IMG/VR virus record: IMGVR_UViG_3300016666_000113 | Coordinates: 1 to 33,397 of that record | Reading direction: 5' to 3' (one strand) | Source: a virus | Lineage: Duplodnaviria; Caudoviricetes | Length of the DNA: 33,397 nt | Shown here: piece by piece, positions 3,262-24,647 of the stretch | How the letters are laid out: each line of letters starts with the position of its first letter | How positions within the stretch are numbered: the stretch's first letter is position 1 | Position numbers and translations under genes: made by a program | The notes under the pieces: model-generated | Seen by the model: only the letters and a program-made list of their open reading frames with translations | Told to the model about the DNA's origin: nothing | Databases searched by the model: none

Positions 3262-4149
3262 TTACAGCCCAATCAATTTTCTAGTGTAAGGGTCTAATCC
3301 AAAACTATCTCCACCGCCACCGCTACCCATCAACCAATCGTAGCCTTTTTGGATATATGGAGAACCTCTATCCAATAACTGAAGTCCTAACAAACCAGTT
3401 CCCAATGCGGTAGCGGTTGGGTTAGTGAAGTAAGGAGTCTGAGTTGTCTGTGTTCTGCCAGCAGGGAAGCCGTAGACTTGATTCAGATAGTTTGTCAGAT
3501 TGGCTTGAGGTGCGGCTTGCTCAAATGCAAACTTCTCTTTAGCAGCCTGAAGTGCTTGCTGTTGGTAACCCTCTCCAAACTGACCTGCGGCTAACAGTTT
3601 GTTAATGTCAGCGTAATCAGCAGCAGCCATCTCTGGTGCGCCAAATGTTGCCTGTTGTTGACGAGCACGTTCTTGGGCGTAATTCTGATATGCCAGTTGT
3701 CCAGCAGTTCCTGTCAGGCTCTGAGCCAAAGTGTTAGCCGCTTGATTCTGAAGGTTAGTCATCGCACCAGAACCGTAGCGACCTGCTTTAGATGCCTGTG
3801 AAGCCACATTGCCAATCGCTTGATTAAAAGCGTTTGTAGCGGCTTGGGCAGCAGGTTGGAAAGCACCTTGAAAGAAAGGATTGCCACCAAGATAATCACC
3901 TTGGATTGTTCCGTACAGTTGATTTTGGGCAGCAGAAGTCAGAGGAGAACCAGCTTGAGCACGAGCCTGTAAAGCGGCTAGACCTGTCTGTGTTGCCTCT
4001 GAAGGCCCGACATAACCCTGACCTGTGAAATACTTTGGCCCACCTGCTTGGTAGAGGCGCTGAGATTCTTCCAGACCGTATTTCAGAAACGGCTGAATCG
4101 TTGGGTCAATCTGAGTTGTGGATGTAGATGTTGCGGTTTCGACTGCCAT
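3262..4149 (-). CDS. Internal virion / DNA ejection (pilot-like) protein
   Basis: 295 aa, Gln/Ala/Gly-rich, T/S-rich N-terminus (TATSTSTTQIDP), GRYGSG motif, Gly-rich hydrophobic C-terminus. Confidence 0.7.
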   Translation of the reverse strand: MAVETATSTSTTQIDPTIQPFLKYGLEESQRLYQAGGPKYFTGQGYVGPSEATQTGLAALQARAQAGSPLTSAAQNQLYGTIQGDYLGGNPFFQGAFQPAAQAATNAFNQAIGNVASQASKAGRYGSGAMTNLQNQAANTLAQSLTGTAGQLAYQNYAQERARQQQATFGAPEMAAADYADINKLLAAGQFGEGYQQQALQAAKEKFAFEQAAPQANLTNYLNQVYGFPAGRTQTTQTPYFTNPTATALGTGLLGLQLLDRGSPYIQKGYDWLMGSGGGGDSFGLDPYTRKLIGL

Positions 4150-4229
4150 TTTCGTTCCTTTTCACTAAGGGACTCCGAGGCGGGTCATCCACGGAGCCAA
4201 TTATATACACTAGCCTACCAAAATGTAAG
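4150..4229 (-). promoter_or_regulatory. Putative promoter and structured leader ahead of the ejection genes
   Basis: CTTACA-18 nt-TATAAT (-10 at 4205-4200), then hairpin GGCUCCGUGG-AUGACCCG-CCUCGGAGUC (4198-4171), then AAGGA SD. Confidence 0.45.
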
Positions 4230-4992
4230 CATAAGTCTTGTCTGATGTTGAGTTCGCAAAGTGGGTTAATGTCGCCTCGCCCTTGGTCTGGGAGCTGACG
4301 TAGACGTTTGTAGAGGCAGACGGAGCCACATATTGAGCCGTGATAATTGCTGATGGGACAGCAGGGCGGGTTGGACTTGTGGAAGTCCCGTATTGCTCAA
4401 TACTGACCCCCGTATCCGATACACGCCACTTTAATTCCACATAGTCGCCAGCTTGCATCTCAACAAAGAAATTCATTGCTGCGATAAGGTGGGATGGGTC
4501 GCCAGAACTCTTCCGAGCAGGTAACGAGAAACGGCTGTTTGACTTGTCAATATTCGTTCCATTCTTGGCAAACCAAATATCAACGTCTTGGGTGTCGTTT
4601 GTCGTGTTTTTAAGCTGAATTGAGAACTGGATGTTATAAATCCCGTAATTCCTGACGTTCACCCGAGAACTGTTGGACAGATAGACCCCATTTGAGTAGT
4701 CTGTCGTGTCAAAAGTAATCGAGTAAGCCGTAGTCGTATTGGCGGCTGTCTGATCGGTAGAGTCCTGAAAAGCCCCATAAGGAGCAGAATCAGTCTCAGC
4801 AGCGTCAGAGAACGGAATCAGCACAATCTTGGTATCTGCGCTAATTCTTTCGTCAGTTATCGTGGTCGTGGTGGCGTTTCCTGTCGCCAAGGTAACCGTT
4901 CCATGATTGTTCGTCTTACCGTTCATTATCCCGTTGACGATCTCAGCCACACCCCTTTGGTCGGCTCCAAATACAGGGAGAAGGCGAAACAT
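4210..4992 (-). CDS. Tail protein with an inserted C1q/TNF-like beta-sandwich domain
   Basis: 260 aa; the central YGAFQDSTDQ...ITFDTTDYSNG...GIYNIQFSIQL...GDYVELKW segment has the C1q-like pattern common in phage virion proteins; directly follows the tail nozzle gene. Confidence 0.6.
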   Translation of the reverse strand: MFRLLPVFGADQRGVAEIVNGIMNGKTNNHGTVTLATGNATTTTITDERISADTKIVLIPFSDAAETDSAPYGAFQDSTDQTAANTTTAYSITFDTTDYSNGVYLSNSSRVNVRNYGIYNIQFSIQLKNTTNDTQDVDIWFAKNGTNIDKSNSRFSLPARKSSGDPSHLIAAMNFFVEMQAGDYVELKWRVSDTGVSIEQYGTSTSPTRPAVPSAIITAQYVAPSASTNVYVSSQTKGEATLTHFANSTSDKTYAYILVG

Positions 4993-6644
4993 TACCTATT
5001 CCCCTGTGGTTGAATCTCAACATCCACCGCAACAGCCATCTTCCAGTTGTCGCCAGTAGGATTAACCTGAATCCGATGGTAATTCCCAGACCCCCTCAAA
5101 GAAACTCGGTTATCCGAATCCGCTGCGGTAGCCGTTCCAAAAGTCACCACCTCATTTAAGAGAGTTCTAGAAGCCAAAGCCACAGTCGCAGAACCGTTGT
5201 CAATCTGTGGTCGAGCTAGGTTAATCAAAGACCGCCCACCTGTGGAAATATCGCCTGTCTCGATAGTCGCTGACTTATTCGCCCCGCTAAACGTAACCAC
5301 CTTAGTCCCAGAAGTGCCGCCAAGGAAGTATTTACCACCTGCGTATAGGTTGGAGTCAAGAGACACAGAAAGAGCGTCTAAAGAGGCGTTAACGCTGTCT
5401 AATTGCTCAACAGTCACCGAGGCAGTAGTAGCATCAGAAATATAGTCCGAGGCTGCCATCATCACAGACCATTTCTTAGTCGTGAAGCTGTAAACCAACA
5501 TTTTCCTTTCTGCGAACTTACTCTTGTAATTCCACAGAACGAGTTTACGGATAGGGTCAACCGCAGAGGACATGGTTGTAAAGTCTGGGTCGGCATCGTT
5601 AAAGAAGAACCGATCTACCTTCTCAGCGCCGATTGGCACGACTTGTTGACCATCACACAAATAAAACCCGTCATCAGACAGGAAGAAAGTCAGACCTTGA
5701 TACTGACTTACTGAGCCTGATGCGATACAGCCCTTCTCTCGGCTGATGTTGTCGAATTGGAAGATAAACGGAGTGCCGACATAGCTCATCCGATGGATTG
5801 CCTTTTCCATCAGGATAAGACCAAACTCACCGCCTCGGATACCAGTAATATGCCCACCATCGGGAATGTCTTGGTAATCAGCCTGAGTGATTTGGCTTGT
5901 TGTCCAAGTGGTTTCATCATTTATTCCAGACCATTGAACCCGATAAGGCAGATTCCCGCCAGCCGAGTCTAAGTGAGCACAAACAACAAAATCCCTCACA
6001 ACGGTCACAAACTTGGCAATAGGCGCATCGTCTGCCAGATTCCTAAACGATGTGCTCGTATCAGCCACAAACGACTGAAGGCGGTCACCAAAGTTAGCAG
6101 CGATTGTCCTATTTCCAAATCGAGTGAAGCGAATTCTCTCGTTCGCAGGGGTGTTAAATCCTGTCTCAGAGGCAGAGATTCTCACGTTTCCGCTTGTTGT
6201 GGCAGAAGTCGTGGTAATCGTGAAAGTGTCAGCGGTTAGCTTGGTAACAGTAAAAGTCCCATCGGTAGCCGTTCCGCTTGTGAAATTGAGATAAACAGAA
6301 TCGCCTGTTTTCCAACCATGAGCCGTAGCTGTCACGGTCAGAGTGGTCGTTCCCGTTTGGGCGTAAGTCCCTGATGTGTACCAAACCTGAGTCAAAGCGC
6401 CAACAGAGTCAACGGTGTAAATCTTATCCTGACCTGCTGCGAATAATTTAATAGTCCCAGATTGGTCTTTAGAGTACGAAAGGGTAAGCAAATTCTCATC
6501 AGCAGCCGCTGAGAAATAAGCCTCAGACGGAAAAGGCGCATATCCCGTAGCCGTTGGGTAACAATTTAAGGCAGTCTGAATCCCACCAACCAAGCCAGGC
6601 TGATCTGGTGTCCACTCGCCTAATGCGATTCGTTGTGTAGGCAT
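4992..6644 (-). CDS. Tail tube B / nozzle (P22 gp10-like stabilisation protein)
   Basis: 550 aa, beta-rich propeller-like pattern (VQWSGINDETTW; GCIASGSV...FFLSDDGFY...IGAEKVDRFF); position after adaptor. Confidence 0.7.
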   Translation of the reverse strand: MPTQRIALGEWTPDQPGLVGGIQTALNCYPTATGYAPFPSEAYFSAAADENLLTLSYSKDQSGTIKLFAAGQDKIYTVDSVGALTQVWYTSGTYAQTGTTTLTVTATAHGWKTGDSVYLNFTSGTATDGTFTVTKLTADTFTITTTSATTSGNVRISASETGFNTPANERIRFTRFGNRTIAANFGDRLQSFVADTSTSFRNLADDAPIAKFVTVVRDFVVCAHLDSAGGNLPYRVQWSGINDETTWTTSQITQADYQDIPDGGHITGIRGGEFGLILMEKAIHRMSYVGTPFIFQFDNISREKGCIASGSVSQYQGLTFFLSDDGFYLCDGQQVVPIGAEKVDRFFFNDADPDFTTMSSAVDPIRKLVLWNYKSKFAERKMLVYSFTTKKWSVMMAASDYISDATTASVTVEQLDSVNASLDALSVSLDSNLYAGGKYFLGGTSGTKVVTFSGANKSATIETGDISTGGRSLINLARPQIDNGSATVALASRTLLNEVVTFGTATAADSDNRVSLRGSGNYHRIQVNPTGDNWKMAVAVDVEIQPQGNR

Positions 6645-6645
6645 A

Positions 6646-7536
6646 CTATCCCTGTCTTAACCAAGTGTTGTTATTTTGCGACACTTCTGACCATGTGTTT
6701 GAGTTCGCAGAAACGTCTGTCCATGTGTCTGAACTAGCACTCACAGTTGTCCAAGTGTTGTTATTTTGCGACACATCATTCCAAGTATCTTCGCTAGTCG
6801 TAACGTCAACCCAATTATCGCCCAGACGCACCCCATTACAAGTAACAGTAGCATCGCACGAAATTGAGCCGCTGAAGTCGTAGATTGCATAAGCACTAGC
6901 CTCGCAAGTTCCTGAACATTCAATGCTTGCAGTACCGTCTGCGGTTATCCCCCCCAAAGCAGAAACAGTCGCAGTTGCGGTAATTGAGGCATCAGCCTGA
7001 CGAACCCTAATGGAATCTGCGCTTACAGTAGCCGCACAGGAAATATCAGCCACTCCGCTTGCCACGATACCGCCCAAAGCGGTTACATCAGCAGAACAGG
7101 AAATAGCCGCATCTCCAAACTGAACTCTAATTCCAGCGGCAGATACAGTTGCGGTTGAATCAATAGCACCTGAACCGAACTGGACTCTTGTTCCAGCAGC
7201 AGAAACAGAGGCAGAAGCGTCAACAGAACCAGAAGCGTATTGAACCCTCGTGGCATCGCAGGAAACGGTCGCAGAAGCGTCTATTGCGCCTGAACCATAC
7301 TGAACCCTTATCCCGTCAGCAGATGCGCTTGCAGAGGTTGTTACAGAAGCAGAGGCTAATTGGACTCGTATCGCATCAGCCGAAACCGATGCGCTAGAAG
7401 TAACCGAACCGTAAGCATCCCACCGAGTGACTGACGTTGTGTATAACGGACTGTCAAGCGACAGCGTTAACGAGTCTAGACTAGCCTTTAGATTATCAAG
7501 GCTGTCTATTGTCCACGGTGGGAGCAGGTCAGCCAT
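6646..7536 (-). CDS. Ser/Ala/Thr-rich repeat virion protein (putative fibre)
   Basis: 296 aa; about ten 20-aa repeats (e.g. YGSGAIDASATVSCDATRVQ) followed by six Trp residues at 10-aa spacing. Confidence 0.6.
   Translation of the reverse strand: MADLLPPWTIDSLDNLKASLDSLTLSLDSPLYTTSVTRWDAYGSVTSSASVSADAIRVQLASASVTTSASASADGIRVQYGSGAIDASATVSCDATRVQYASGSVDASASVSAAGTRVQFGSGAIDSTATVSAAGIRVQFGDAAISCSADVTALGGIVASGVADISCAATVSADSIRVRQADASITATATVSALGGITADGTASIECSGTCEASAYAIYDFSGSISCDATVTCNGVRLGDNWVDVTTSEDTWNDVSQNNNTWTTVSASSDTWTDVSANSNTWSEVSQNNNTWLRQG
6661..6774. repeat. Exact 24-bp direct repeat within the Trp-decamer coding repeats
   Basis: CCAAGTGTTGTTATTTTGCGACAC at 6661-6684 and 6751-6774 (encodes VSQNNNTW twice). 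Confidence 0.9.
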
Positions 7537-7537
7537 A

Positions 7538-7924
7538 TCACGCCAAAGTCACGCTCAATGAACCAGAAGCAATGCGGAAAACGTCACCAGTAGCGATGGT
7601 TTTCGAGGCATCTAAGGCTGTGTGGAATAGCAAGTTACCAGCGGTAGAGGCATCACGAATCCCAACATGGGTGATCGTTCCCCATGAGCCACCAGCTTGA
7701 GGAAATTCAATAGCCGATGAGTTTGTAGTCACCCCGTTAGATGGTGAACCAAAAGTAATCGCCTGACGAGCGTAAGAAGTACCTGAACACTCAGTACCAG
7801 AATCCGCATCGGTTGGGTCGCTAGTGTAGAGAGCCAAGTAAACAGTCGTTGGACTTGTGTAGCTTGTGTTTCGGAGAACAGCGTTTACAAGAGCGTTCTC
7901 AAGATAATTTGACATTTCAGACAT
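7538..7924 (-). CDS. Conserved small beta-rich virion protein (minor tail/fibre subunit)
   Basis: 128 aa with YLALYTSDP..., YARQAITF, IEFPQA..WGTITHVGIRDASTAGNLL, a pattern typical of a widespread minor structural protein family. Confidence 0.65.
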   Translation of the reverse strand: MSEMSNYLENALVNAVLRNTSYTSPTTVYLALYTSDPTDADSGTECSGTSYARQAITFGSPSNGVTTNSSAIEFPQAGGSWGTITHVGIRDASTAGNLLFHTALDASKTIATGDVFRIASGSLSVTLA

Positions 7925-7926
7925 AT

Positions 7927-8547
7927 TTACCTCGTTGCAAATGACATTGAAAGTGGAACACCTGAATACTGTGAAGATTCATCAGATGTTGAAAGCGTTG
8001 CGATACCCCTGTCATACAGAGAACCCCAGACCTGAATACGAGCATCGTTCATCAGATAAGGCTCTGCTTCTAACAGAGAGGCATACAGCAAAACATCAGG
8101 CGCATTTGCCATGAATACGTTGCTTGAATTTGAGTCACCCAAGAATGTAGGCGCTGCGAAATACAACAGTTCTAGCGTGTAAGTCGTATCTGGAATTGGA
8201 GACAACTTAAACTCTGATGCCAGAATCGTGTAATCAAGAGGCTTACCGCTAGTGGTCGATTTTGTGTTACGACTGAAAATAGCAGGGCTTGAGTAAGTCA
8301 ACGGCTGGATTGGATTGGTAGAAACGTAAAAGTCTCTAGCTTCCAAAAAGTCTGAAGGGAGTTCAACGGTTGAATCACCACCTGTCGTGGTCGTGGTCAC
8401 AGACTTAAGCATTTGACGAATACGCAACTCACGGCGTAAACGCAACTCCGCAAACCGAATGAAATCAGGAATCTGATCGGTCAAGTCGGTACGAGCCAAG
8501 TAGCTGGCAACCTTTGTTTTCAAATCTGAGTAAGTCGCTATGCTCAT
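7927..8547 (-). CDS. Head-tail adaptor (tail tube A-like)
   Basis: 206 aa; TYSDLKTKVASYLAR.DL...IPDFIRFAE, LPSDFLE, PIPD..Y, PDVLLYASLLEA; downstream of capsid gene. Confidence 0.75.
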   Translation of the reverse strand: MSIATYSDLKTKVASYLARTDLTDQIPDFIRFAELRLRRELRIRQMLKSVTTTTTGGDSTVELPSDFLEARDFYVSTNPIQPLTYSSPAIFSRNTKSTTSGKPLDYTILASEFKLSPIPDTTYTLELLYFAAPTFLGDSNSSNVFMANAPDVLLYASLLEAEPYLMNDARIQVWGSLYDRGIATLSTSDESSQYSGVPLSMSFATR

Positions 8548-9164
8548 ACATCATCCCAACCATATTCGTAAGTTCCGATATGCCTGATGTGCTTTGAAAG
8601 GTCGTGGTCAACAATGGTGTCGAAACCAGCGTCATACGCCTTTGCACAAAAGTAAATATCTTCCCCTATTGTCCCACCTTTGGCGGTTTTATCAAACCAA
8701 AACCAAGGCTTTTCAACTTTCTCGAAAACTTCTTTTCGGATTAGAACCATCCCGAATCCGACACCCATGACTTGCTCAAGACCTTCCTTGCCTTTACTGT
8801 CAACTTTCACCAAGTCTTTAGTTTCAGGACAAACATCTAAGGCTGTCGCTTGGATAGGGAAACGGCGGGTCGTTGCATTAACCCCAACAATGGGAAGTTC
8901 ACGGGATAAAAGGATTCTGAGCGCATCTTTTGGGAATCTCATGTCTGAGTCAACCCACAAAATAGCGTCAGCACCATCCTTTAAGGCTTCCTCGGCTAAC
9001 CTCTCACGTTGGTTAAATATCAACGTGCCTGGCACTTGGTAGATCAATAAAGACCCACCTTCTGCACATCGAGTCACACCTTCATACGCACACAATTTCG
9101 CTAGATCAAAAGCAAACCCTGTCATAACTGTGTCACGGCAGGGAACGCAAATAGCTACCTTCAT
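8544..9164 (-). CDS. GT-A fold (GT2-like) glycosyltransferase
   Basis: KVAICVP start, DxD motif (WVDSDM), GFGMVLIRKEVF, catalytic-type GEDIYFC, C-terminal HIG. Confidence 0.8.
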   Translation of the reverse strand: MKVAICVPCRDTVMTGFAFDLAKLCAYEGVTRCAEGGSLLIYQVPGTLIFNQRERLAEEALKDGADAILWVDSDMRFPKDALRILLSRELPIVGVNATTRRFPIQATALDVCPETKDLVKVDSKGKEGLEQVMGVGFGMVLIRKEVFEKVEKPWFWFDKTAKGGTIGEDIYFCAKAYDAGFDTIVDHDLSKHIRHIGTYEYGWDDV

Positions 9165-9469
9165 AGTTGTCCTGGTCGAGTTCTGAAAAACCGATTATCA
9201 GGGTTATTTAGGAAGTCACGAAATCTTTTTTCATCAACTACGGCAAAACCTCGCATGATTCCCTGTTTATTTAGGTCATCAATCACAACATTAGGGATAC
9301 TGGCGACTTTCGCCCACTCCCCCCACTTGGCACGTTCATCCGTAGCGTTGAACTGAGCCTTGTTGCTCTCCAAAATACCAGAAATATCCTGCTTAGTCTC
9401 AATGAAATGCTTTCCATCGAGGTCGTGGAAATTAGTCTCTTTACCGTTCTGTGATGCAATGTGGCGCAT
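9161..9469 (-). CDS. Conserved hypothetical protein following the capsid gene
   Basis: 102 aa; QDISGILE.NK, VASIP, FLNNPDNRFFRT; ATGA overlap with the GT gene. Confidence 0.7.
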   Translation of the reverse strand: MRHIASQNGKETNFHDLDGKHFIETKQDISGILESNKAQFNATDERAKWGEWAKVASIPNVVIDDLNKQGIMRGFAVVDEKRFRDFLNNPDNRFFRTRPGQL

Positions 9470-9495
9470 AAAAGAAGGGGGGTGATTAGCCCCCC
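9470..9495 (-). terminator. Rho-independent terminator after the major capsid gene
   Basis: GGGGGG-CTAATCA-CCCCCC followed by TTCTTTT, a few nt after the capsid stop codon. Confidence 0.75.
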
Positions 9496-9501
9496 GTGTG
9501 A

Positions 9502-10452
9502 TTAAGATGTAGACAAGTCAGCAGCGATACCGTGGGCTGCTTCGTTACGCATCTCCAAAGTCAACTCGGCCAAAATCTGAGTTTTCTCTGCGTCACCAGC
9601 TTTTGCCAATTCGTTTGTGGCGAATGGGCGCAAGTAAGCAACTGCTGCGTATTCTGGGTCAAGCACCAGAGCGTCACGGGTACGCATGAAGCGTGATGGA
9701 ACCACAGAAATAGTGCCGAAATCGCTCATGTAAACGTCAGCAGCACCGATAATGGTTGTTGGCTCGTTAGAAGGAGCCATGTAACGCTGTGCTGCGATAC
9801 CAGCGAAACCAGAAACGGTTTGCTTTTGGAATGGGCCAACCATTAAAATCTTGGGGTTGCCGCCAGAAGAGTAAACCTTCTGAACCACATCCTTCAAGAT
9901 GGTTTCGGTGAAAGCACGTTGAGTGCCGTCTGTACGGGTAGACACACCGATAGTGGTGGGGTCAACGCCAGCGGTAGTGCCAGAAGATTTGCTAGTGTTG
10001 GTCTTAATCCAAGACAACATAGCGCCCAACTGACGAGCAGTAGAAGCATCACCAGCAGAACGGCCTTGGTTGGCAGTCAAGATGGTTTCAATGTCACGCT
10101 TCAACTCGGCAGAGGCTTTGCTCAACTGATAGGCTTTTTCTGACTTACGACCTGCTTTGTCAACAGCTTCCAAAGTGCCAGAAATCTTGATAGTTTTCTG
10201 AACGATCTGGGTGTAGTTGCCCAAACGGGTAGTAGGCGACATGGTAGCGTCAGAGGCGTCTGCACCTTCCACAGCGGCGTTGTTGGTGGTAGCGGCAGCC
10301 AAGCTGTCGGTTTGCCACTCATGGTATACGCCAGTAGCTTTGCCACGAGCCAAAGAGTTCAACAGAGGTGTGTCTGTGGGGCTGATGTTATAAATAACAT
10401 CCGAGAGGTCTTCACGCTGACCGATAGCGGTATATGTTTGATATGTTGCCAT
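9502..10452 (-). CDS. Major capsid protein (HK97 fold, DUF5309/SU10-like)
   Basis: 316 aa; GQREDLSDVIYNISPTDTP, HEWQTDSL, NYTQIVQK, ELKRDIE, YMSDFG; AAGGA SD; follows scaffold. Confidence 0.9.
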   Translation of the reverse strand: MATYQTYTAIGQREDLSDVIYNISPTDTPLLNSLARGKATGVYHEWQTDSLAAATTNNAAVEGADASDATMSPTTRLGNYTQIVQKTIKISGTLEAVDKAGRKSEKAYQLSKASAELKRDIETILTANQGRSAGDASTARQLGAMLSWIKTNTSKSSGTTAGVDPTTIGVSTRTDGTQRAFTETILKDVVQKVYSSGGNPKILMVGPFQKQTVSGFAGIAAQRYMAPSNEPTTIIGAADVYMSDFGTISVVPSRFMRTRDALVLDPEYAAVAYLRPFATNELAKAGDAEKTQILAELTLEMRNEAAHGIAADLSTS

Positions 10453-10461
10453 TTTGATTCC

Positions 10462-11406
10462 TTAGAGAAATTTTTCAAAGAGTGCGGCTGCATCACGGAC
10501 TTTGCCAGTTTGACGCAAACGCTGTTGCAATTTTTTGTTCTGTTCTGCCTCTGCATTTCGTGGCACAGAAGTTCCAGCTTTCATTACCTTCGGAGCGGCC
10601 TCGACCTTCTTTGTGATCGCAGGTTTATTGCTCTGAAGTTTTGCGTACTTCATGCCCTGATACAGACTCAAAACAGCCCTAGAGTCATATAGGTTTGCAA
10701 GCTCTTGGTCACTCCACCCGATTGACTTGGCGTATTCACGAATATCCTTACGGATTTGATCGCCAGCCTTGGGGTCACCGTAACCAGGAATCAGGTTAGT
10801 CAACTTTTGACTTTCTTCAGCGAGATGCTGCTGTAAACGCTCAGATTGCTCGGCTTGTTGCTGTTGGGCAATGCGTTGCTGCTCTTGTTGCAGAATAGCT
10901 AACTGTTTCTCTCTCTGCGCCTGTTCAGCGACTTTTACGGCATAACCGATAGGGTCGCTTTCCTTTAGTGCTTCCAAATTTTCACCCTTGTTCTGTTGCT
11001 GGAGAAATTGCTCCATCATTTGCAGACGTTGGGCGTACTGATCTCTTAATTTTGTCGCTTCCTGAATCTTCGCTCTTTCGGCTTCCACCGCTTTGCGTTC
11101 TTCAGCAAGTTTCTGGGTTTTCTTGGTGTAATCCGCACCTAATTGGTAGCCCTCAATAAGTTCTGTCTCAGTTACTTCCCTTTCCTCACCTGCGGCTTTC
11201 ACCTTGAAGGTACGGGTAGGCTGTTCTTGAACTTCTTCAGAATCTACCAACTCTGGTTCAGAGTCCTCAACATATTCCTCGACAGTTTCCTCAGTTTCGG
11301 GTTGGCTCTCGGCTCCCTCTGCTGATTCCATCATGCCCAAAAATGCTGCTGCGGCTGTGTCCACCGTCAGCGTTCCACTTCCTTGCGGAGTCGTGTTTTC
11401 GCTCAT
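10462..11406 (-). CDS. Capsid scaffolding protein
   Basis: 314 aa; acidic N-terminus, GYQLGADYTKKTQKLAEERK, long Gln-rich coiled coil, C-terminal TGKVRDAAALF; directly upstream of capsid gene. Confidence 0.85.
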   Translation of the reverse strand: MSENTTPQGSGTLTVDTAAAAFLGMMESAEGAESQPETEETVEEYVEDSEPELVDSEEVQEQPTRTFKVKAAGEEREVTETELIEGYQLGADYTKKTQKLAEERKAVEAERAKIQEATKLRDQYAQRLQMMEQFLQQQNKGENLEALKESDPIGYAVKVAEQAQREKQLAILQQEQQRIAQQQQAEQSERLQQHLAEESQKLTNLIPGYGDPKAGDQIRKDIREYAKSIGWSDQELANLYDSRAVLSLYQGMKYAKLQSNKPAITKKVEAAPKVMKAGTSVPRNAEAEQNKKLQQRLRQTGKVRDAAALFEKFL

Positions 11407-11449
11407 TTGATTCCCAAATTGTCAGCCTAAACGGTAGGCCACCGCCTCG

Positions 11450-11680
11450 TTAGAGGATTTTCCAACGCTTTTTGATTATTTCGCTTGTTGCAGCCAAACT
11501 CTCAAAATGCGCTATGACCGATTGTAATGCGTTTATTTTCAAATACGCAACTTCTCGTTCATCAATATTGTGAGGCTGAGAATTGACGATCACCGCCAGT
11601 TCTGCGTTCTTCAAAACCTCAAGCTCTCCCATGAAAAAGTCATCGGAGATTAGATTCTTAGCCCGTTGTGCTTTGTCCAA
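11450..11680 (-). CDS. Small conserved protein upstream of scaffold
   Basis: 76 aa helical; EREVAY motif; common portal-to-scaffold position. Confidence 0.65.
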   Translation of the reverse strand: MDKAQRAKNLISDDFFMGELEVLKNAELAVIVNSQPHNIDEREVAYLKINALQSVIAHFESLAATSEIIKKRWKIL

Positions 11681-12431
11681 GGATTGACCCCACTATTTGA
11701 TTTAAGTCCACAGGAGACCCCATTGGAGTCTGTCTGCCAGCAGCGAACAATTCATTAAACGTCTGCGCTTGAGGCATATTCTGCCATTGAGTACCCTGAA
11801 GGGAAACGCCTGGGAATAAGTCCTCAAAAGTCACATTCTGAACGGGAGTGTAGGTGTATTCTGGAGACTTCCAATCCTCTGGGATAGGGACTTGGGCAAA
11901 TCCACTCTGGGCGAATGTATTAGCACCACTACCCGTTACATCACTTAATCCAAGAGGGTCGCCAGTTATAGCGTTAACCAATAAACCAGCCCTCGCCATG
12001 TCCAAACCTTCTTTTAAGGTCAGCCCTTTTGCGGCGGCAGAAGTCGCAAAAACTGGCGATGCAGAGTTAGCCAAATCAATGGCGGCAGCATCCCAAGCGG
12101 CATTTTCTGCGGCTATTCGGGCGGCTTGTTCAGCGGCAATTTGTTCAGCGGCGGCGGTAGCAGCGGCATCAGCGGCGGCTACATCAGCGCCAGCAGCCAT
12201 AGTAGCCCCGTCTGCGCTAATGTAGGCGTTTATCTCAGGAGAATAATAGTAACCAGCGGCTAATAATGCGGCAGTAGTCCAACCGCCTGGCAACTGCTCA
12301 CGAACGGTTTGATCTATTTGTTTGCCAACATCTTTAACCGTATCAATAGCGCCTTGACCTATTTCGCCACCTGATTCGATTGCATTGCTGATAATCCTGA
12401 CAGGATTAAGACGACCTAAACCAAGCCCCAT
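11658..12431 (-). CDS. Ala-rich hypothetical protein between portal and scaffold (possible internal virion protein)
   Basis: 257 aa, AAGGGG SD, long Ala-rich helix, Gly-rich hydrophobic segments. Confidence 0.6.
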   Translation of the reverse strand: MGLGLGRLNPVRIISNAIESGGEIGQGAIDTVKDVGKQIDQTVREQLPGGWTTAALLAAGYYYSPEINAYISADGATMAAGADVAAADAAATAAAEQIAAEQAARIAAENAAWDAAAIDLANSASPVFATSAAAKGLTLKEGLDMARAGLLVNAITGDPLGLSDVTGSGANTFAQSGFAQVPIPEDWKSPEYTYTPVQNVTFEDLFPGVSLQGTQWQNMPQAQTFNELFAAGRQTPMGSPVDLNQIVGSILGQSTTG

Positions 12432-12441
12432 ATCGTTCCCC

Positions 12442-14523
12442 TTAACCTGGTATTTCTACGTTAGAAGTGATGCCAGCACCAACCTTCATGGCTTTCATTT
12501 GAGCCTCTGCCAAGAATTCCTCTTGTTTCAGAGCCAACTGTGCTGCGGCTTTTTCACGCTCTAGTTGAATCTGAGCCGTGTTCTTTTCACGCATGAGTTG
12601 TAGGTCAGCGATTGCCTTTTGTTGGGCTAACTCAATGTCAGCTTGCGCCTTCATTTGTTGAGCCTGAATATCCGCTTGGGTCTTAGCCATGTAAGCCTGA
12701 ACCTCTGGCGGCATTTGCGGCTGTTGAGGTTGAGGATTGGCGAGAGCCTGATCTTGCTCTGGAGTGATGGGTTTATAGAATTCGGCAGAATCCTTAAATC
12801 CTGCGGCTTCAACCATCCGACCAAGAGTATTACGGTACTGACCCATAGAAACCAACGGATTAGCTGGCCCCATTTGTCCGAGAACTTGCTCTTGTTTGGC
12901 GAGAACCATATTCAGCATCGCCATTTGTTCTTGGCGGTTTCCTGCGCCCAGACCCACGTTAATGTCCACATCGTACTGATTTGACCACTCACGGGGGTCA
13001 AAAGACACATACTGACCACGCATCCGAACGATACGAGCCTTATCTTGGTACTTACAGAGAAGATGCAAGATGCCTTGGAACAGAGATTTAACGCCTGTCT
13101 CAGCAAAGATTCGGGCAATCATCTCAATCTTGCCAGCGGCAGACTGTTGCATAGACGCAACAGCAGCGGCAGTCACGTTTTGAAGGATAGACGGGTCAAG
13201 ACCCTGAGAAGCCTCTGTAACCCCTGTGCGCTTTTGTTGGATTGAGTCCAAATATTGAAGCATCGGGAAGGCTTGTTGCGCCACAGGCTGAACGGCTAAC
13301 TGTTGAACAGCGCCTTGGGATTTAATCCGCACTACGCCGCCAGCAGTAGCTGTCAGAAGGTCATCTAAGTTAACTTGACCATCCACCGCTGTCACACGGG
13401 CGTTGTTCGTCAGATACAGATTATCCAAGATTTGACGAGTGATCGTGGTCTTGATTAACTGCAAGTCCATAGTCCTGTCAGCGAGAGATTCGCCAAAGAA
13501 CTTGTGTGGAGTTGGAATTGGGCAGAGTGAGTGGAAAGGAATGTAGTCAGTCTCTTCGTCACTCAGGATTTCGTTTGAGGCGTAAAAGACTTGGCGCAGT
13601 TCAGCAATACCGTCACCGTCAATATCGGCTGTGACATAGCACTCGAAAACCTCAATAGTCTCCATTGACTCATCGGCTGAGATTCCATCGTCAGGATTCT
13701 CGCCAGGTGCAACACGGGCTAGGTACTCAGGTGAGTAAGTCAGCGCACTAGAGGCTTGGAGTCCGTTCACAACGTCTTTATCAAAGCCCATTGCGATCAA
13801 GTCGCTACGGGTGATTAAGCGGCGATGAGCGACAAAAGGCGCATCCTGTGGGCTTTTCTTGGCTCGTTTAGAGATGAGGAATTCTTCAGGCGGCACGTTC
13901 TCAACGACAACACGACCTGATTTTTTCTTCTTTTTAACCACTACGGTATTCGAGGAATACATCACAGGCTGACCCATTGGGTCTAGAACTGGATTACCCG
14001 CAGGGTCTTTAAGTTCGTTCTCTACAACCTCTTTCTCAACGATCTCCATCGTGTCATCAGAGAGAAGCATCGCTAACTCATCATCAGACAAGTCACGATA
14101 TTTTTCTTTGGTTACATCCTCTTTATCTTCCCAATAGGCTTTAACGACACCTACCTTTTGGAGTAGGGCATCCTTAAACCAATCGTGCATGATGATTACG
14201 CCAGCGTTATCACGCATGAACACCCAATTACAGTATTCAGTCGCTTGCTTGGCTCCAGCCTCATCTTGTGGGCCACGAGGGTCGAATCTCACAACCTCAT
14301 CAGACGATGAGAAGATACGCACCAAAGGTGGCAAAGCACCATCCACCGCTTCAGCGACTTCGCCAGTTACGATGGATGATTTACCCTCGACTTCATTTCC
14401 GAGTGGTTGGCGTAGATAAAAGGATAGTGCGTCTGTGCGCTGTTGAGTCGTTTCGGTTTCTAGGAATCCGATGGAGTTATCAATTTCCGATTCCAGTATC
14501 GACTTCAGTTTGTCTTGGCTCAT
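12442..14523 (-). CDS. Portal protein (P22-like, long C-terminal barrel)
   Basis: About 693 aa from ATG 14523 (MSQDKLK; the track start at 14613 overlaps the upstream gene); WFKDALLQKVGVVK, VPPEEFLIS, PHKFFGES, Gln-rich coiled-coil C-terminus; follows terL. Confidence 0.9.
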   Translation of the reverse strand: MSQDKLKSILESEIDNSIGFLETETTQQRTDALSFYLRQPLGNEVEGKSSIVTGEVAEAVDGALPPLVRIFSSSDEVVRFDPRGPQDEAGAKQATEYCNWVFMRDNAGVIIMHDWFKDALLQKVGVVKAYWEDKEDVTKEKYRDLSDDELAMLLSDDTMEIVEKEVVENELKDPAGNPVLDPMGQPVMYSSNTVVVKKKKKSGRVVVENVPPEEFLISKRAKKSPQDAPFVAHRRLITRSDLIAMGFDKDVVNGLQASSALTYSPEYLARVAPGENPDDGISADESMETIEVFECYVTADIDGDGIAELRQVFYASNEILSDEETDYIPFHSLCPIPTPHKFFGESLADRTMDLQLIKTTITRQILDNLYLTNNARVTAVDGQVNLDDLLTATAGGVVRIKSQGAVQQLAVQPVAQQAFPMLQYLDSIQQKRTGVTEASQGLDPSILQNVTAAAVASMQQSAAGKIEMIARIFAETGVKSLFQGILHLLCKYQDKARIVRMRGQYVSFDPREWSNQYDVDINVGLGAGNRQEQMAMLNMVLAKQEQVLGQMGPANPLVSMGQYRNTLGRMVEAAGFKDSAEFYKPITPEQDQALANPQPQQPQMPPEVQAYMAKTQADIQAQQMKAQADIELAQQKAIADLQLMREKNTAQIQLEREKAAAQLALKQEEFLAEAQMKAMKVGAGITSNVEIPG

Positions 14524-16287: not shown

Positions 16288-16536
16288 TTACCACTTAACT
16301 TTGTCAGCCCAATATGCTGCGCTCATTTTCCCTTTGGCTATGTTTTTGGCGTGTCGTGCCTTAAATGCCTCGTTACGCTTAGAGCCATCAGGGGAACCTT
16401 TTACACCCTGCTGACCGAAACGGATAAGTTTCACCTCATCACCTGACTTTGCCAAGACTGCGTGGCTTTTTGTCGGGTGGTTAGGCGTTCTCTTTGGTTT
16501 GTTGTAACCAGAAAACTCTTCATTTCCTCGTTTCAT
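16288..16536 (-). CDS. Small basic conserved protein
   Basis: 82 aa, Lys/Arg-rich; KLIRFGQQG, FKARHAKNI, SAAYWADKVKW; ATGA-coupled to the FkbM gene. Confidence 0.75.
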   Translation of the reverse strand: MKRGNEEFSGYNKPKRTPNHPTKSHAVLAKSGDEVKLIRFGQQGVKGSPDGSKRNEAFKARHAKNIAKGKMSAAYWADKVKW

Positions 16537-17162
16537 ACCATCTCCGCAGGGATAAATACGTTGTCAGACCACACTCTCTCTGCAAAAAAGTAGCCTAACT
16601 TCTGAATCATTATAGCGATTTCAGCGTCATCCATGCCGTTTTTGGCTAGTCTTTTCTGCTCGATGATGATAATCGGTCTAGCCCTCATAATCGTGTCAAA
16701 AGCACCCTTTAAGGCGTTTTCCTCAAATCCCTCAACATCCAACTGAATCAGGTCAGGATTGAGATTCAGGCTGTCAATGGTCATCATCGGGATGCCTTCT
16801 TCTGCCTCTTCAATCTGAAGTGCACCGTAGTTTTGACCCTCATCACCCTCTACCGAGCGACAGAATCCAGCTTTGTCTGACAGTCCAGCCTTGTAAATCT
16901 CAACATTTGCCTCGGATACATTCCTTTGAAAGCACTCAAAGTTAATGTCGTTCGGCTCAAATGTCACGACTTTGCTGAAAAGTTCAGCATAAATCTTCGA
17001 CCAAACCCCGCAATTCCCACCCGCATGAATAACCAAATCCCGCTTTGGAACCCACTTCACAAGGTCAGGGATAGCCGCAATCTCTTTGGGAATCCACTCC
17101 CAAGCCTGAACGTCATCTTTAGGCCACCACCAACCATCACGTTGCTCGATCTGCGTATTCAA
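16533..17162 (-). CDS. FkbM-family SAM-dependent methyltransferase
   Basis: HAGGNCGVWS (SAM-binding motif), TFEP...NF, TIDSL, LIQLDVEGFE..ALKG, PIIIIE. Confidence 0.85.
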   Translation of the reverse strand: MNTQIEQRDGWWWPKDDVQAWEWIPKEIAAIPDLVKWVPKRDLVIHAGGNCGVWSKIYAELFSKVVTFEPNDINFECFQRNVSEANVEIYKAGLSDKAGFCRSVEGDEGQNYGALQIEEAEEGIPMMTIDSLNLNPDLIQLDVEGFEENALKGAFDTIMRARPIIIIEQKRLAKNGMDDAEIAIMIQKLGYFFAERVWSDNVFIPAEMV

Positions 17163-17760
17163 TCGTACTCTCCCAAAATTGTGTTGCGAAACAATGCCCG
17201 TTGCCCGTGTAAATCTGCCCTGAGAAGTGCTCTCTGGTGAAATAGTGGGATGGATAGATTGTCAGGGGATATTTGGTCTGAAGAAAGACCTCGGTAATCA
17301 GAACAGGGCCTGTTGACTCCCAAGCCCGTTTATCTGTTACCGTTTCCTTTTGTCGGAGTGTCTCGATACATTGACCGAAAAACGGATTCTCAGGGATTGA
17401 ACCCATGACGCTGACGTTAATCAGCCCAGGTCGGGTTATCTCTTGTTCCCAATGGGCAAAAGCGTCTGGTTTGAGCAACCAATCCTCTAACGGAGAAAGG
17501 CAGACAGAATCAGCATCTAGCGTGATTCCACCTTCGTTATAGAGGATTTCATACCGCATCATGTCGGCAACCCCACACAGTTCGTATTTCGCCATCTCTA
17601 CGATGTGCTTGGCATTAAACCAAGGGTTGCCTTTTAATTCCTCATTGCCCCATATCTTGATCTCGTAATCAGGATTTAGGTTGCGCCATGAGTTTATGCA
17701 ATGGTCTGGGCGTTTGGACTTGTCACCAATCCAGACAAAATGGAGTTTTTTAGGAATCAC
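17137..17760 (-). CDS. GT32/OCH1-like glycosyltransferase (DXD sugar-binding family)
   Basis: IPKKLHFVWIG, SWRNLNPDYE...W, ADMMRYEILYNEGGITLDAD (DxD), TGP..IT; GTG start coupled to upstream stop. Confidence 0.85.
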   Translation of the reverse strand: MIPKKLHFVWIGDKSKRPDHCINSWRNLNPDYEIKIWGNEELKGNPWFNAKHIVEMAKYELCGVADMMRYEILYNEGGITLDADSVCLSPLEDWLLKPDAFAHWEQEITRPGLINVSVMGSIPENPFFGQCIETLRQKETVTDKRAWESTGPVLITEVFLQTKYPLTIYPSHYFTREHFSGQIYTGNGHCFATQFWESTIEYADRAT

Positions 17761-21635: not shown

Positions 21636-22367
21636 TTATAAATCATTCAGAATTCTCCAAGCGGTTGCCGCCACTCTTGGAACTTGTGCATTCCCAATGG
21701 CTTTAGTTCTGTCCACTTGTCCGGGAAGTACATTATGAGTTCTAGATAGTCCGGGTCGTAGTATTGATCGCAATCCTGGCTCGTTCTTATCCACTCCGTT
21801 GTAAAACTTGCTCTGTATTCTCGGCTTCCCCAATATCTTTTCTTTGCCGCACCTCTCCACATACTTGTGACTGGGGTCGGTAGCCAGCACCCAAATTCGT
21901 TCTCTCCTATGGGGTAATCCAATCGAGTCTGCTCCCAACACTCCCCATTTCGCATCAAACCCCAATTTGGCAAGGTCGCACAAGACTCTGTCGAGTCCTC
22001 GAATAGTGAGCATTGGTGAGTTTTCAATGAATGCGTATTTGGGTCGTACTTCGCAAATGATGCGAGCCATTTCTCGCCACATTCCAGAGGCTTCTCCGTC
22101 AATCCCTGCTCCTTTTCCTGCGACTGAAATGTCCGTACATGGAAAGCCTCCCGATACGACATCAACAATGCCTCTCCAAGGTCGTCCGTCAAAGGTTTGA
22201 ACATCATCCCAAATCGGGAAAGGCGGGAGAAGTCCGTCATTTTGTCGGGCGCACAATACGCTTGCTGGATAGGGTTCCCATTCAACGGCGCAGACTGTTC
22301 GCCATCCGAGAAGTTTTCCCCCAAGTATTCCGCCACCAGCGCCTGCGAATAAAGCCAACTCATTCAT
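21636..22367 (-). CDS. C5-cytosine DNA methyltransferase, main (alpha-like) polypeptide
   Basis: Motif I LFAGAGG, IV GGFPCTDIS, VI IENS, VIII PHRRERIW, X KAIGNAQVP; only 243 aa and no recognisable motif IX. Confidence 0.9.
   Translation of the reverse strand: MNELALFAGAGGGILGGKLLGWRTVCAVEWEPYPASVLCARQNDGLLPPFPIWDDVQTFDGRPWRGIVDVVSGGFPCTDISVAGKGAGIDGEASGMWREMARIICEVRPKYAFIENSPMLTIRGLDRVLCDLAKLGFDAKWGVLGADSIGLPHRRERIWVLATDPSHKYVERCGKEKILGKPRIQSKFYNGVDKNEPGLRSILRPGLSRTHNVLPGQVDRTKAIGNAQVPRVAATAWRILNDL
21647..22363 (-). CDS. Alternative-frame (beta-like) polypeptide of the C5 methyltransferase
   Basis: 238-codon frame nested in the MTase gene, ATG 4 nt after the MTase ATG; C-terminal DPDYLELIMYFPDKWTEL resembles motif IX. 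Confidence 0.7.
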   Translation of the reverse strand: MSWLYSQALVAEYLGENFSDGEQSAPLNGNPIQQAYCAPDKMTDFSRLSRFGMMFKPLTDDLGEALLMSYREAFHVRTFQSQEKEQGLTEKPLECGEKWLASFAKYDPNTHSLKTHQCSLFEDSTESCATLPNWGLMRNGECWEQTRLDYPIGENEFGCWLPTPVTSMWRGAAKKRYWGSREYRASFTTEWIRTSQDCDQYYDPDYLELIMYFPDKWTELKPLGMHKFQEWRQPLGEF

Positions 22368-23470: not shown

Positions 23471-23500
23471 ATTATACCTGTTTCACAAATATCCCGTCAG
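23471..23500 (-). promoter_or_regulatory. Sigma70-like promoter driving the structured RNA and replication genes
   Basis: CTGACG (23500-23495)-18 nt-TATAAT (23476-23471), 6 nt upstream of the RNA stem. Confidence 0.6.
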
Positions 23501-23777
23501 CCCCTAGATAACCCTTACGGTCTTTGATTTCCTCGTAAGCGCCCTTAAAGCACTCCACAAGGTCTAAATCCGCACAGGCGCAACCCATCACCAAAGTCAC
23601 CAGAATATCCCCGTAGGCATCCTTCATAGCCTCTTTGTCGCCATTCCTGATAGCGTCTATGAGTTCGTCTAGTTCCTCTTGGGTCTTGACAGCTTGAGCC
23701 TCTGGGGTGGAGTTCTGAACGATTCCTCTCGCCTCACCCCATTGGATAACCTTAATTTCAGTCGCTGCGTAACTCAT
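23472..23777 (-). CDS. MazG-like nucleotide pyrophosphohydrolase
   Basis: From ATG 23777; WGEARGI, KTQEELDEL, DAYGDILVTL, AYEEIKDRKG....GIFVK. Confidence 0.85.
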   Translation of the reverse strand: MSYAATEIKVIQWGEARGIVQNSTPEAQAVKTQEELDELIDAIRNGDKEAMKDAYGDILVTLVMGCACADLDLVECFKGAYEEIKDRKGYLGADGIFVKQV

Positions 23778-23926
23778 CAGAAACAACTTGTGGTACACAT
23801 ATTAGGGCCAGAACAAGTGGTTGTGCAAGTTACCATCTTGTTACCCACCATGTAGGTGTGGGTTGAGAACTGAGCCAAAGCGACACTAGAAGCCAAGGCT
23901 AAAACGATTCCGATTACTGTTTTCAT
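23777..23926 (-). CDS. 49-aa exported peptide with four Cys (not in ORF track)
   Basis: MKTVIGIVLALASSVALA-QFSTHTYMVGNKMVTCTTTCSGPNMCTTSCF; GAGGTG SD; ATGA and TGATG overlaps with neighbours. Confidence 0.8.
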   Translation of the reverse strand: MKTVIGIVLALASSVALAQFSTHTYMVGNKMVTCTTTCSGPNMCTTSCF

Positions 23927-24303
23927 AAAGCACCTCTAAAAATACGCTTATCACCCATAAGCGAGGGGTATTGCAGGAAGTCATACGCACCAGGTCGCTG
24001 ACAAGTCCTAGTCAATTCTTTACCATCATAAAAGCCCACAGTCGTTCCTGCCACAACTTTTCTGGTAGTGGCGATCTTTGGCGCTTCCATCGCCTTACGC
24101 CCGTGTTCCGTGATATGCCACAAATCATCACCGTGTTGCGAAATTACAACAACCAGCCCTGCTTGAGCCATTTCCTCTAGGTATCTCTGGAAATGTACAG
24201 ATAGTTGGCTGTTTCCCGTGTCTCCGTGGGTAAACGATCTGGTGGACTTTGGGCCATACGCCAGCCGCTTGAGCATATCTTTGTGAGCGTTTCTGAGTTT
24301 CAT
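23923..24303 (-). CDS. Putative winged-helix DNA-binding protein
   Basis: YLEEMAQAGLV.......WHITEHGRKAM wing pattern; C-terminal RPGAYDFLQYPS. Confidence 0.6.
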   Translation of the reverse strand: MKLRNAHKDMLKRLAYGPKSTRSFTHGDTGNSQLSVHFQRYLEEMAQAGLVVVISQHGDDLWHITEHGRKAMEAPKIATTRKVVAGTTVGFYDGKELTRTCQRPGAYDFLQYPSLMGDKRIFRGAL

Positions 24304-24509: not shown

Positions 24510-24572
24510 GATTTATTGTGTATCAAAAAAGCGACATTAGCGTTGCTTCCTTGCAACAGACTAAAAATATTT

Positions 24573-24600
24573 TTCACAACCGCAGATTTTTGATTATGAT
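24573..24600 (+). promoter_or_regulatory. Sigma70-like rightward early promoter
   Basis: TTCACA (24573-24578)-16 nt-TATGAT (24595-24600) in the AT-rich divergent intergenic region. Confidence 0.55.
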
Positions 24601-24605
24601 TGTTT

Positions 24606-24647
24606 TCATGCCCTCGCTGTGAGGGTCTTTTTAGGAGTAAACATGGA
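24606..24647 (+). repeat. 42-bp leader repeat (hairpin, U-tract, RBS), copy 1
   Basis: TCATGCCCTCGCTGTGAGGGTCTTTTTAGGAGTAAACATGGA; 33/42 identical to 25107-25148. Confidence 0.85.

Follow-up and report, generated by a model that had tools for sequence, protein, structure and literature searches.

A hidden reading frame for 49 amino acids lies between two genes of an uncultured phage, and the locus raises the question of whether this frame is a gene and, if so, what a phage would do with so small an exported product. The window, the whole 33,397-base stretch of DNA analysed here, is a complete phage genome with terminal repeats. It has a virion module of the short-tailed type (capsid PHROG 1328, portal 1216 and a DNA ejection protein), a lambdoid-type replication and recombination module (DUF1376 initiator, Erf, exonuclease and NinB), and lysis genes for an endolysin and an Rz-like spanin, the last of which indicates a Gram-negative host. 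A sequence-only reading of the window had described the frame as a gene for an exported peptide and had suggested superinfection exclusion, inhibition of competitors or phage signalling as roles. The features on which the present analysis draws are the following.

23777..23926, minus strand: 49-aa precursor gene, four-Cys family member (ORF and selection analysis)
23873..23926, minus strand: predicted Sec/SPI signal peptide of 18 aa, with MK, a hydrophobic core and A-L-A (sequence, family residue rule and model helix)
23780..23872, minus strand: mature peptide of 31 aa, predicted three-stranded antiparallel sheet (models and conservation)
23783..23827, minus strand: C-x3-C-x5-C-x3-C core, with inferred disulfides C16–C30 and C20–C26 in mature numbering (paired Cys loss and gain, strand register)
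23931..23936, minus strand: Shine-Dalgarno GAGGTG, within the 3' end of the upstream gene (sequence)
23923..24303, minus strand: upstream 126-aa gene with a weak winged-helix match, translationally coupled, no constant partner (Pfam and locus comparison)
23472..23777, minus strand: downstream MazG-like pyrophosphatase, coupled, no constant partner (Pfam and locus comparison)

The hidden frame is a coupled, conserved gene

The frame proved to be genuine. It runs from 23926 to 23777 on the minus strand, a strand that the sequence-only reading had left unstated, and its peptide sequence agrees with the one given there. The couplings described earlier are present: the frame overlaps the upstream 126-aa gene (stop at 23923) in an ATGA and the MazG-like gene, whose ATG begins at 23777, in a TGATG, and the GAGGTG Shine-Dalgarno sequence lies at 23936–23931, 4 nt ahead of the peptide ATG. 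The MazG-like label of the downstream gene is borne out by a Pfam match (PF03819) above the cut-off. The winged-helix label of the upstream gene is weak, the only match being to HTH_45 with an E value of 0.003, below the cut-off.

Homologues were found, and they keep the frame, start, stop and cysteines. In the mature part, the window and its relative L001 differ at 11 synonymous and 0 non-synonymous sites, and in the signal part by about 6 replacements. For 83 distinct six-Cys mature coding sequences the median dN/dS was 0.04, taken over the 144 of 3403 pairs that were not saturated, and third codon positions carried most of the variation (0.46, against 0.10 and 0.13 at the other two). An SD-like 4-mer stands ahead of the family gene in 125 of 130 loci. 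The small gene is protein-coding and under strong purifying selection. A contig from one RNA-labelled freshwater run spans the peptide gene; a probable DNA run breaks at nearly identical places, and the RNA-labelled run contains 33-kb contigs, so this contig is not evidence of transcription.

A large family without a name

Thirteen viral loci came from searches that used the window peptide and an initial alignment of it, and a degenerate motif scan yielded at least 120, with about 210 estimated. The scan motif, shaped partly by prior expectation of such peptides, fixed several residues including Cys16, 19 and 20 and left Cys2, 25 and 29 free, which inflates the conservation figures for the residues it fixed. 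Family ORFs were parsed in 131 of the 133 viral loci collected (all except L052 and L122); one of the 131, L041, is truncated where its contig stops. A profile built from 42 sequences picked out 700 clusters (90% identity) among 1829 candidates, and a 5-sequence profile gave 18 representatives at 50% identity; the variant Cys forms came from profile searches. The window peptide is a derived four-Cys variant of a large, mostly six-Cys family.

Databases have little to say about this family. In Pfam, PHROG, NCBIfam and PADLOC there was no significant family match to the window peptide, with scattered weak matches (E above 0.001) in a few members, and a PDB sequence search gave no family match and only weak similarities, mostly to signal peptides. 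A likeness to a fimbrial pilin N-terminus (E 0.23) was out of register and was rejected. The ESM Atlas returned unnamed clusters only, all below 0.9, with no named match, and Foldseek against BFVD and PDB returned nothing at E ≤ 0.001; no homologue of known function was found in the databases searched. INPHARED contained 0 matches to the window peptide and 2 uncultured records matching a six-Cys query, a plasmid search gave no match to the family, and no carrier phage in culture was found. A published description of the family was not found in the literature searched, and the tables of a large survey of small phage genes, or the GMSC catalogue, may list members. A public six-Cys member, UFOVP420_45 (A0A6J5M8Q5) from an uncultured Caudovirales phage, is named 'hypothetical protein' or, automatically, 'Lipoprotein'. 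GenBank record MW202544.1 (L274, 2501–2638) has no annotation for the family gene and instead places a hypothetical ORF on the opposite strand there. The carriers are uncultured freshwater phages, and a phage from Manatee Spring (USA) also has the gene. The gene is a common accessory one in uncultured freshwater phages; its family is unnamed, and annotation overlooks or mislabels it.

Several candidate members were set aside. Ten longer family matches that might have been fusions seem to result from starts called too far upstream, from chimeras or from read-through gene calls. P0185, which does not resemble the peptide, was clustered with it wrongly. In P0194, P0195, P0200 and P0201, Gln occupies the usual stop of the family and is followed in frame by the apparent next gene; these four are probably read-through gene calls from a putative TAG-recoded code.

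Predicted export and a disulfide-stapled fold

The Sec-type signal peptide that had been proposed is supported, as a prediction, by a residue rule and by a helix in the AlphaFold models. The rule asks for a basic n-region, a hydrophobic h-region and small residues at −3 and −1. Position −1 is Ala in 198 of 200 sequences and position −3 is V, A, T or L in all 200 (200 of 203 distinct sequences were parsed), and 9-residue hydropathy reaches 3.1 in the window peptide. Only 6 of 191 sequences have a canonical lipobox ahead of the first Cys. That Cys lies at +2, not +1, in the six-Cys form, is lost jointly with Cys19, and is absent from the window copy. The automatic name 'Lipoprotein' of A0A6J5M8Q5 is therefore unsupported, because the lipobox is rare and the window form lacks the first Cys. 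By prediction, the family product leaves the cytoplasm through Sec, is cleaved by signal peptidase I and is not lipidated.

The mature part has the 31 residues and the C-x3-C-x5-C-x3-C core described before. Both AlphaFold models have a signal helix and three strands, with mature pLDDT of 78–87 and low pTM (0.39 and 0.41). In the six-Cys model, two-residue turns lie at mature positions 10–11 and 22–23, and the strand register places 2 opposite 19 and 8 opposite 13 across the first hairpin, and 16 opposite 29 and 20 opposite 25 across the second. Cysteines at 2–19, 8–13 and 20–25 are gained or lost in pairs in 222 of 223 distinct cores, a tally from which two unparsed sequences and three truncated or mis-clustered ones are omitted. 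Six Cys are present in 204 cores; 13 lack 2 and 19 (the window type), 3 have gained 8 and 13, 1 lacks 20 and 25, 1 keeps only Cys16 and Cys29, and the 1 core with an unpaired Cys comes from a sequence that looks frameshifted. The independent changes behind these counts are probably few, four or five, and each fits the register of the model.

Cross-strand disulfides form at non-hydrogen-bonded positions of hairpins. By established hairpin geometry we take all four pairs (2:19, 8:13, 16:29 and 20:25) to occupy such positions. Of the two-disulfide beta-hairpin put forward in the sequence-only reading, the two disulfides, here assigned to C16–C30 and C20–C26, are supported by family covariation and the models, whereas the fold is modelled as a three-stranded sheet. 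Because the paired Cys changes match the register of that sheet, a disulfide-stapled three-stranded beta-meander, rather than a simple hairpin, is the supported model, with the pairing predicted.

The mature peptide is rich in Thr and Asn and has no strongly hydrophobic face, and 162 of 168 mature peptides have a net charge of +1. Mature forms of 30 aa end in F or Y in 99% of cases, and some members have N, I, L or M as the last residue. A His is conserved, with Asn, Ser or Gln in its place in some members. Homodimer prediction scored 0.04, a value that we do not weigh as evidence either way. The natural 2-, 4-, 6- and 8-Cys variants yield a disulfide map, and at 30 residues the peptide can be synthesised and tested.

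Carrier phages and bacterial copies

The surroundings of the family gene vary. Across 91 loci there are at least 7 distinct upstream gene families, usually tightly coupled to it (Cro-like, SSB-like, DUF968-like, three HTH-like families and terminase), labels that are our reading of clusters and not library calls. No neighbour gene is constant in these 91 loci, and in a comparison of 20 genomes (blastp, E 1e-5) no other gene family was common to all 16 carriers. The surrounding operons mostly serve replication or recombination. The earlier description of an early operon fits most loci, as judged by neighbourhood, but not L016 and L060, where the gene sits between terminase and portal. The carriers have at least 6 capsid families (PHROG 1328, 267, 10, 3437, 283 and 4523) and include podo- and siphoviruses, with and without a tape measure. 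Among 28 records chosen by capsid similarity alone, 5 have the family gene; of the 4 with a completeness of 90% or more, 3 have it. The gene is accessory but common, and it is spread over unrelated phages.

The carriers look lytic from their gene content. Tyrosine integrase (PF00589) was found in 0 of 26 phage records (controls positive 14/14), the S24 repressor (PF00717) in 0 of 27 (controls 9/14) and resolvase (PF00239) in 0 of 27 (controls 12/14). No integrase was found among the window's own proteins, and other maintenance modes may remain. Divergent early operons meet at about 24510–24620 of the window, and neither CI nor integrase was found in the window or in the relatives searched.

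In bacteria the gene is nearly absent. A GTDB scan with the alignment gave 0 matches, and the motif scan gave 9, of which 5 are family members (L134, L135, L138, L139 and L140). In 401 genomes of the seed genome's order only the seed has the gene, and 401 genomes of the seed's family returned the seed and a MerP false match only. The host group is probably Betaproteobacteria, going by the MAG labels of L135, L140 and L134, which are weak evidence. The taxon labels of L134, L138 and L139 say little about the host, because the first two are contigs of phage-like content that were binned into MAGs and the end of the L139 contig is phage-like.

In two Burkholderiales MAGs, L135 and L140, an intact copy is flanked by a VIT-vWA gene on one side and a WYL regulator on the other; the L135 block comes after a complete Zorya I system. 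The two MAGs are nearly identical over 661 bases and count as one event, and the copy occurs in 2 of 7 genomes of the genus, on MAG contigs. It may be a passenger. The L135 island (3427–14289) comprises Zorya I (zorABCD), MerR, VIT-vWA, the peptide and the WYL regulator, with a Fic gene further on, and the VIT gene has a perfect palindrome at its end.

Superinfection exclusion as the preferred reading

Our best reading, held tentatively and at rather less than even chance, is that the peptide is a periplasmic superinfection-exclusion factor acting on a putative host envelope target. The precursor would be made from its translationally coupled gene, exported by Sec and cleaved after A-x-A. The mature peptide would then be oxidised into a rigid three-stranded, disulfide-stapled sheet, bind a conserved component of the host envelope from the periplasm and keep later-arriving phages from entering. 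Periplasmic residence, host target and exclusion are each inferred by analogy. A conserved host envelope component is the most likely target, because the carriers are unrelated, conservation is strong and neither a phage partner nor a lysogeny switch was found. The copy in the L135 defence island fits an anti-phage role.

Two precedents favour exclusion. The T4 protein Spackle (gp61.3) is made early, resides in the periplasm after signal cleavage, is disulfide-bonded and acts in superinfection exclusion (PMC7677548). T5 Llp and T1/phi80 Cor are described as small periplasmic disulfide proteins that jam a host outer-membrane transporter (PMC9586334). In the literature consulted, both functions reported for small exported disulfide proteins of lytic phages are superinfection exclusion. 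Like Spackle, the peptide is a small lytic-phage product with a cleaved signal and disulfides, although here export and disulfides are predicted. In contrast, Spackle is described as a 75-aa helical bundle inhibiting the tail lysozyme of its own phage, whereas the peptide is modelled as a 30-aa beta-sheet with 2–4 disulfides, has no sequence match to Spackle and occurs with unrelated virion types. The models are all-beta and the peptide has no PHROG or PDB match, which does not place it in the Spackle family. Llp and Cor are lipoproteins, and Llp acts on the receptor of its own phage, with llp adjoining the receptor-binding gene (PMC9586334); the peptide family, in contrast, has a lipobox only rarely, the window form lacks an N-terminal Cys, and the gene stands among replication genes. 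The family may work like Spackle or Llp and belongs to neither, with a different fold, no lipobox and no similarity.

Some evidence speaks against exclusion. Spackle and Llp act on phage-specific partners, and no cognate partner was found here. Near-invariance across unrelated phages would be unusual for the product of an arms race, the bacterial defence-island copy is a single event, and L016 and L060 have a late-gene setting. In a bolder form of the exclusion reading, to which we give only a small chance, the peptide would be a pan-phage envelope weapon: a mini-protein that unrelated lytic phages of freshwater Proteobacteria, podo- and siphoviruses alike, pass among themselves and that a bacterium has taken into a defence island. 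It would jam one conserved envelope machine, exclude even unrelated phages and stay active on neighbouring cells after lysis. If true, this would be a new mode of phage–phage competition and a natural scaffold against Gram-negative envelopes. A single host target that excludes unrelated phages would show how lytic phages compete for dilute hosts and would indicate a conserved weak spot of the envelope.

Alternative functions

The strong conservation without a phage partner, which points to a conserved host target, would also suit a takeover of the host from the periplasm, in which the peptide inhibits or tunes a conserved envelope machine (cell division or peptidoglycan enzymes, outer-membrane protein assembly or an envelope-stress sensor) and so enlarges or stabilises the infected cell. 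We regard this as unlikely, while taking it seriously. Its neighbours in replication and recombination operons fit, as does the near-constant terminal F or Y, which we take to resemble the outer-membrane protein ends read by BamA and DegS. However, the members with other terminal residues and the polar position −3 are unlike a beta-signal, and an intact copy kept by a bacterium (L135) fits poorly with an inhibitor of an essential machine. That copy, the only bacterial one with long context, adjoins Zorya I, and a small, accessory, mobile gene in the early regions of many unrelated lytic phages could be an anti-defence gene whose peptide neutralises an envelope-anchored defence sensor such as the periplasmic domain of a Zorya-type system. 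This is improbable, since an inhibitor kept beside the system it blocks is hard to explain, the peptide itself has no PADLOC match and the Zorya link is one event. We give similarly little credence to control of lysis timing, as an antiholin or endolysin inhibitor, or to a metal-binding or self-assembling structural role. Periplasmic disulfide proteins of a similar kind exist in T4, where RI offers an antiholin-type comparison, and the conserved His and Thr-rich face could bind metal or stack. Nevertheless, the gene never adjoins a lysis cassette in the 91 mapped loci (by our cluster labels), no lysis gene family is common to all 16 carriers, and replacement of the His in some members argues against metal binding. 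Ice binding through a Thr-x-Thr face was set aside: the 2x2 Thr patch seems too small, and the Manatee Spring phage has the gene.

The sequence-only reading had also suggested a phage signal and an inhibitor of competitors, and both are now disfavoured. A secreted precursor with a stable scaffold, conserved strongly enough to allow cross-talk between phages, could be a diffusible cue, arbitrium-like or for lysis inhibition, released by infected cells and read by others. The arbitrium peptide AimP is likewise made as a secreted phage-encoded precursor, and it requires the receptor AimR and a lysogeny switch (PMC11323111). In the carriers, however, neither an AimR-like shared receptor nor a lysogeny switch was found, and the host is Gram-negative. 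With no integrase, CI or resolvase found there would be no lysogeny switch to control, and the lack of a common partner gene argues against an arbitrium-type signal; Sec export in a Gram-negative cell would stop at the periplasm, and a folded 30-mer is unlike a short processed pheromone. We therefore consider a signal quite improbable. An antimicrobial beta-hairpin that kills competing bacteria after lysis seems very improbable, even though the six-Cys C-x3-C-x4-C-x3-C ladder has the spacing and the 1-4/2-3 pairing of gomesin and tachyplesin (PMC10053013). The likeness lies in the spacing of the C-terminal hairpin and the inferred ladder of the six-Cys form, the window having x5 in place of x4. 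Gomesin, tachyplesin and polyphemusin are two-strand beta-hairpin peptides of animals with a charge of +6 (PMC10053013), whereas the phage family has a third strand, often a third disulfide, and a charge of +1. The Thr/Asn-rich mature part lacks a strongly hydrophobic face, and no immunity gene was seen in 91 loci. We regard the scaffold likeness as probable convergence.

Other features of the window

Just upstream of the peptide Shine-Dalgarno sequence, on the minus strand at 23945–23963, a 7-bp hairpin shows a compensatory change in L001, L005 and L007. Over 104 upstream regions no family-wide RNA element was found (mean z −0.16). At 21636–22367 the minus strand encodes a 243-aa DNA methyltransferase (PHROG 363), and a 238-aa frame with a weaker methyltransferase match (PHROG 1008) lies at 21647–22363 on the same strand, fully overlapped by the longer ORF. 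L004 and further loci have this pair of overlapping frames as well. Methyltransferase and glycosyltransferase-like genes, so called partly by sequence appearance, stand on the minus strand at 16533–17760 and 8544–9164 beside packaging and head genes, and possibly serve modification of the virion or the host surface.
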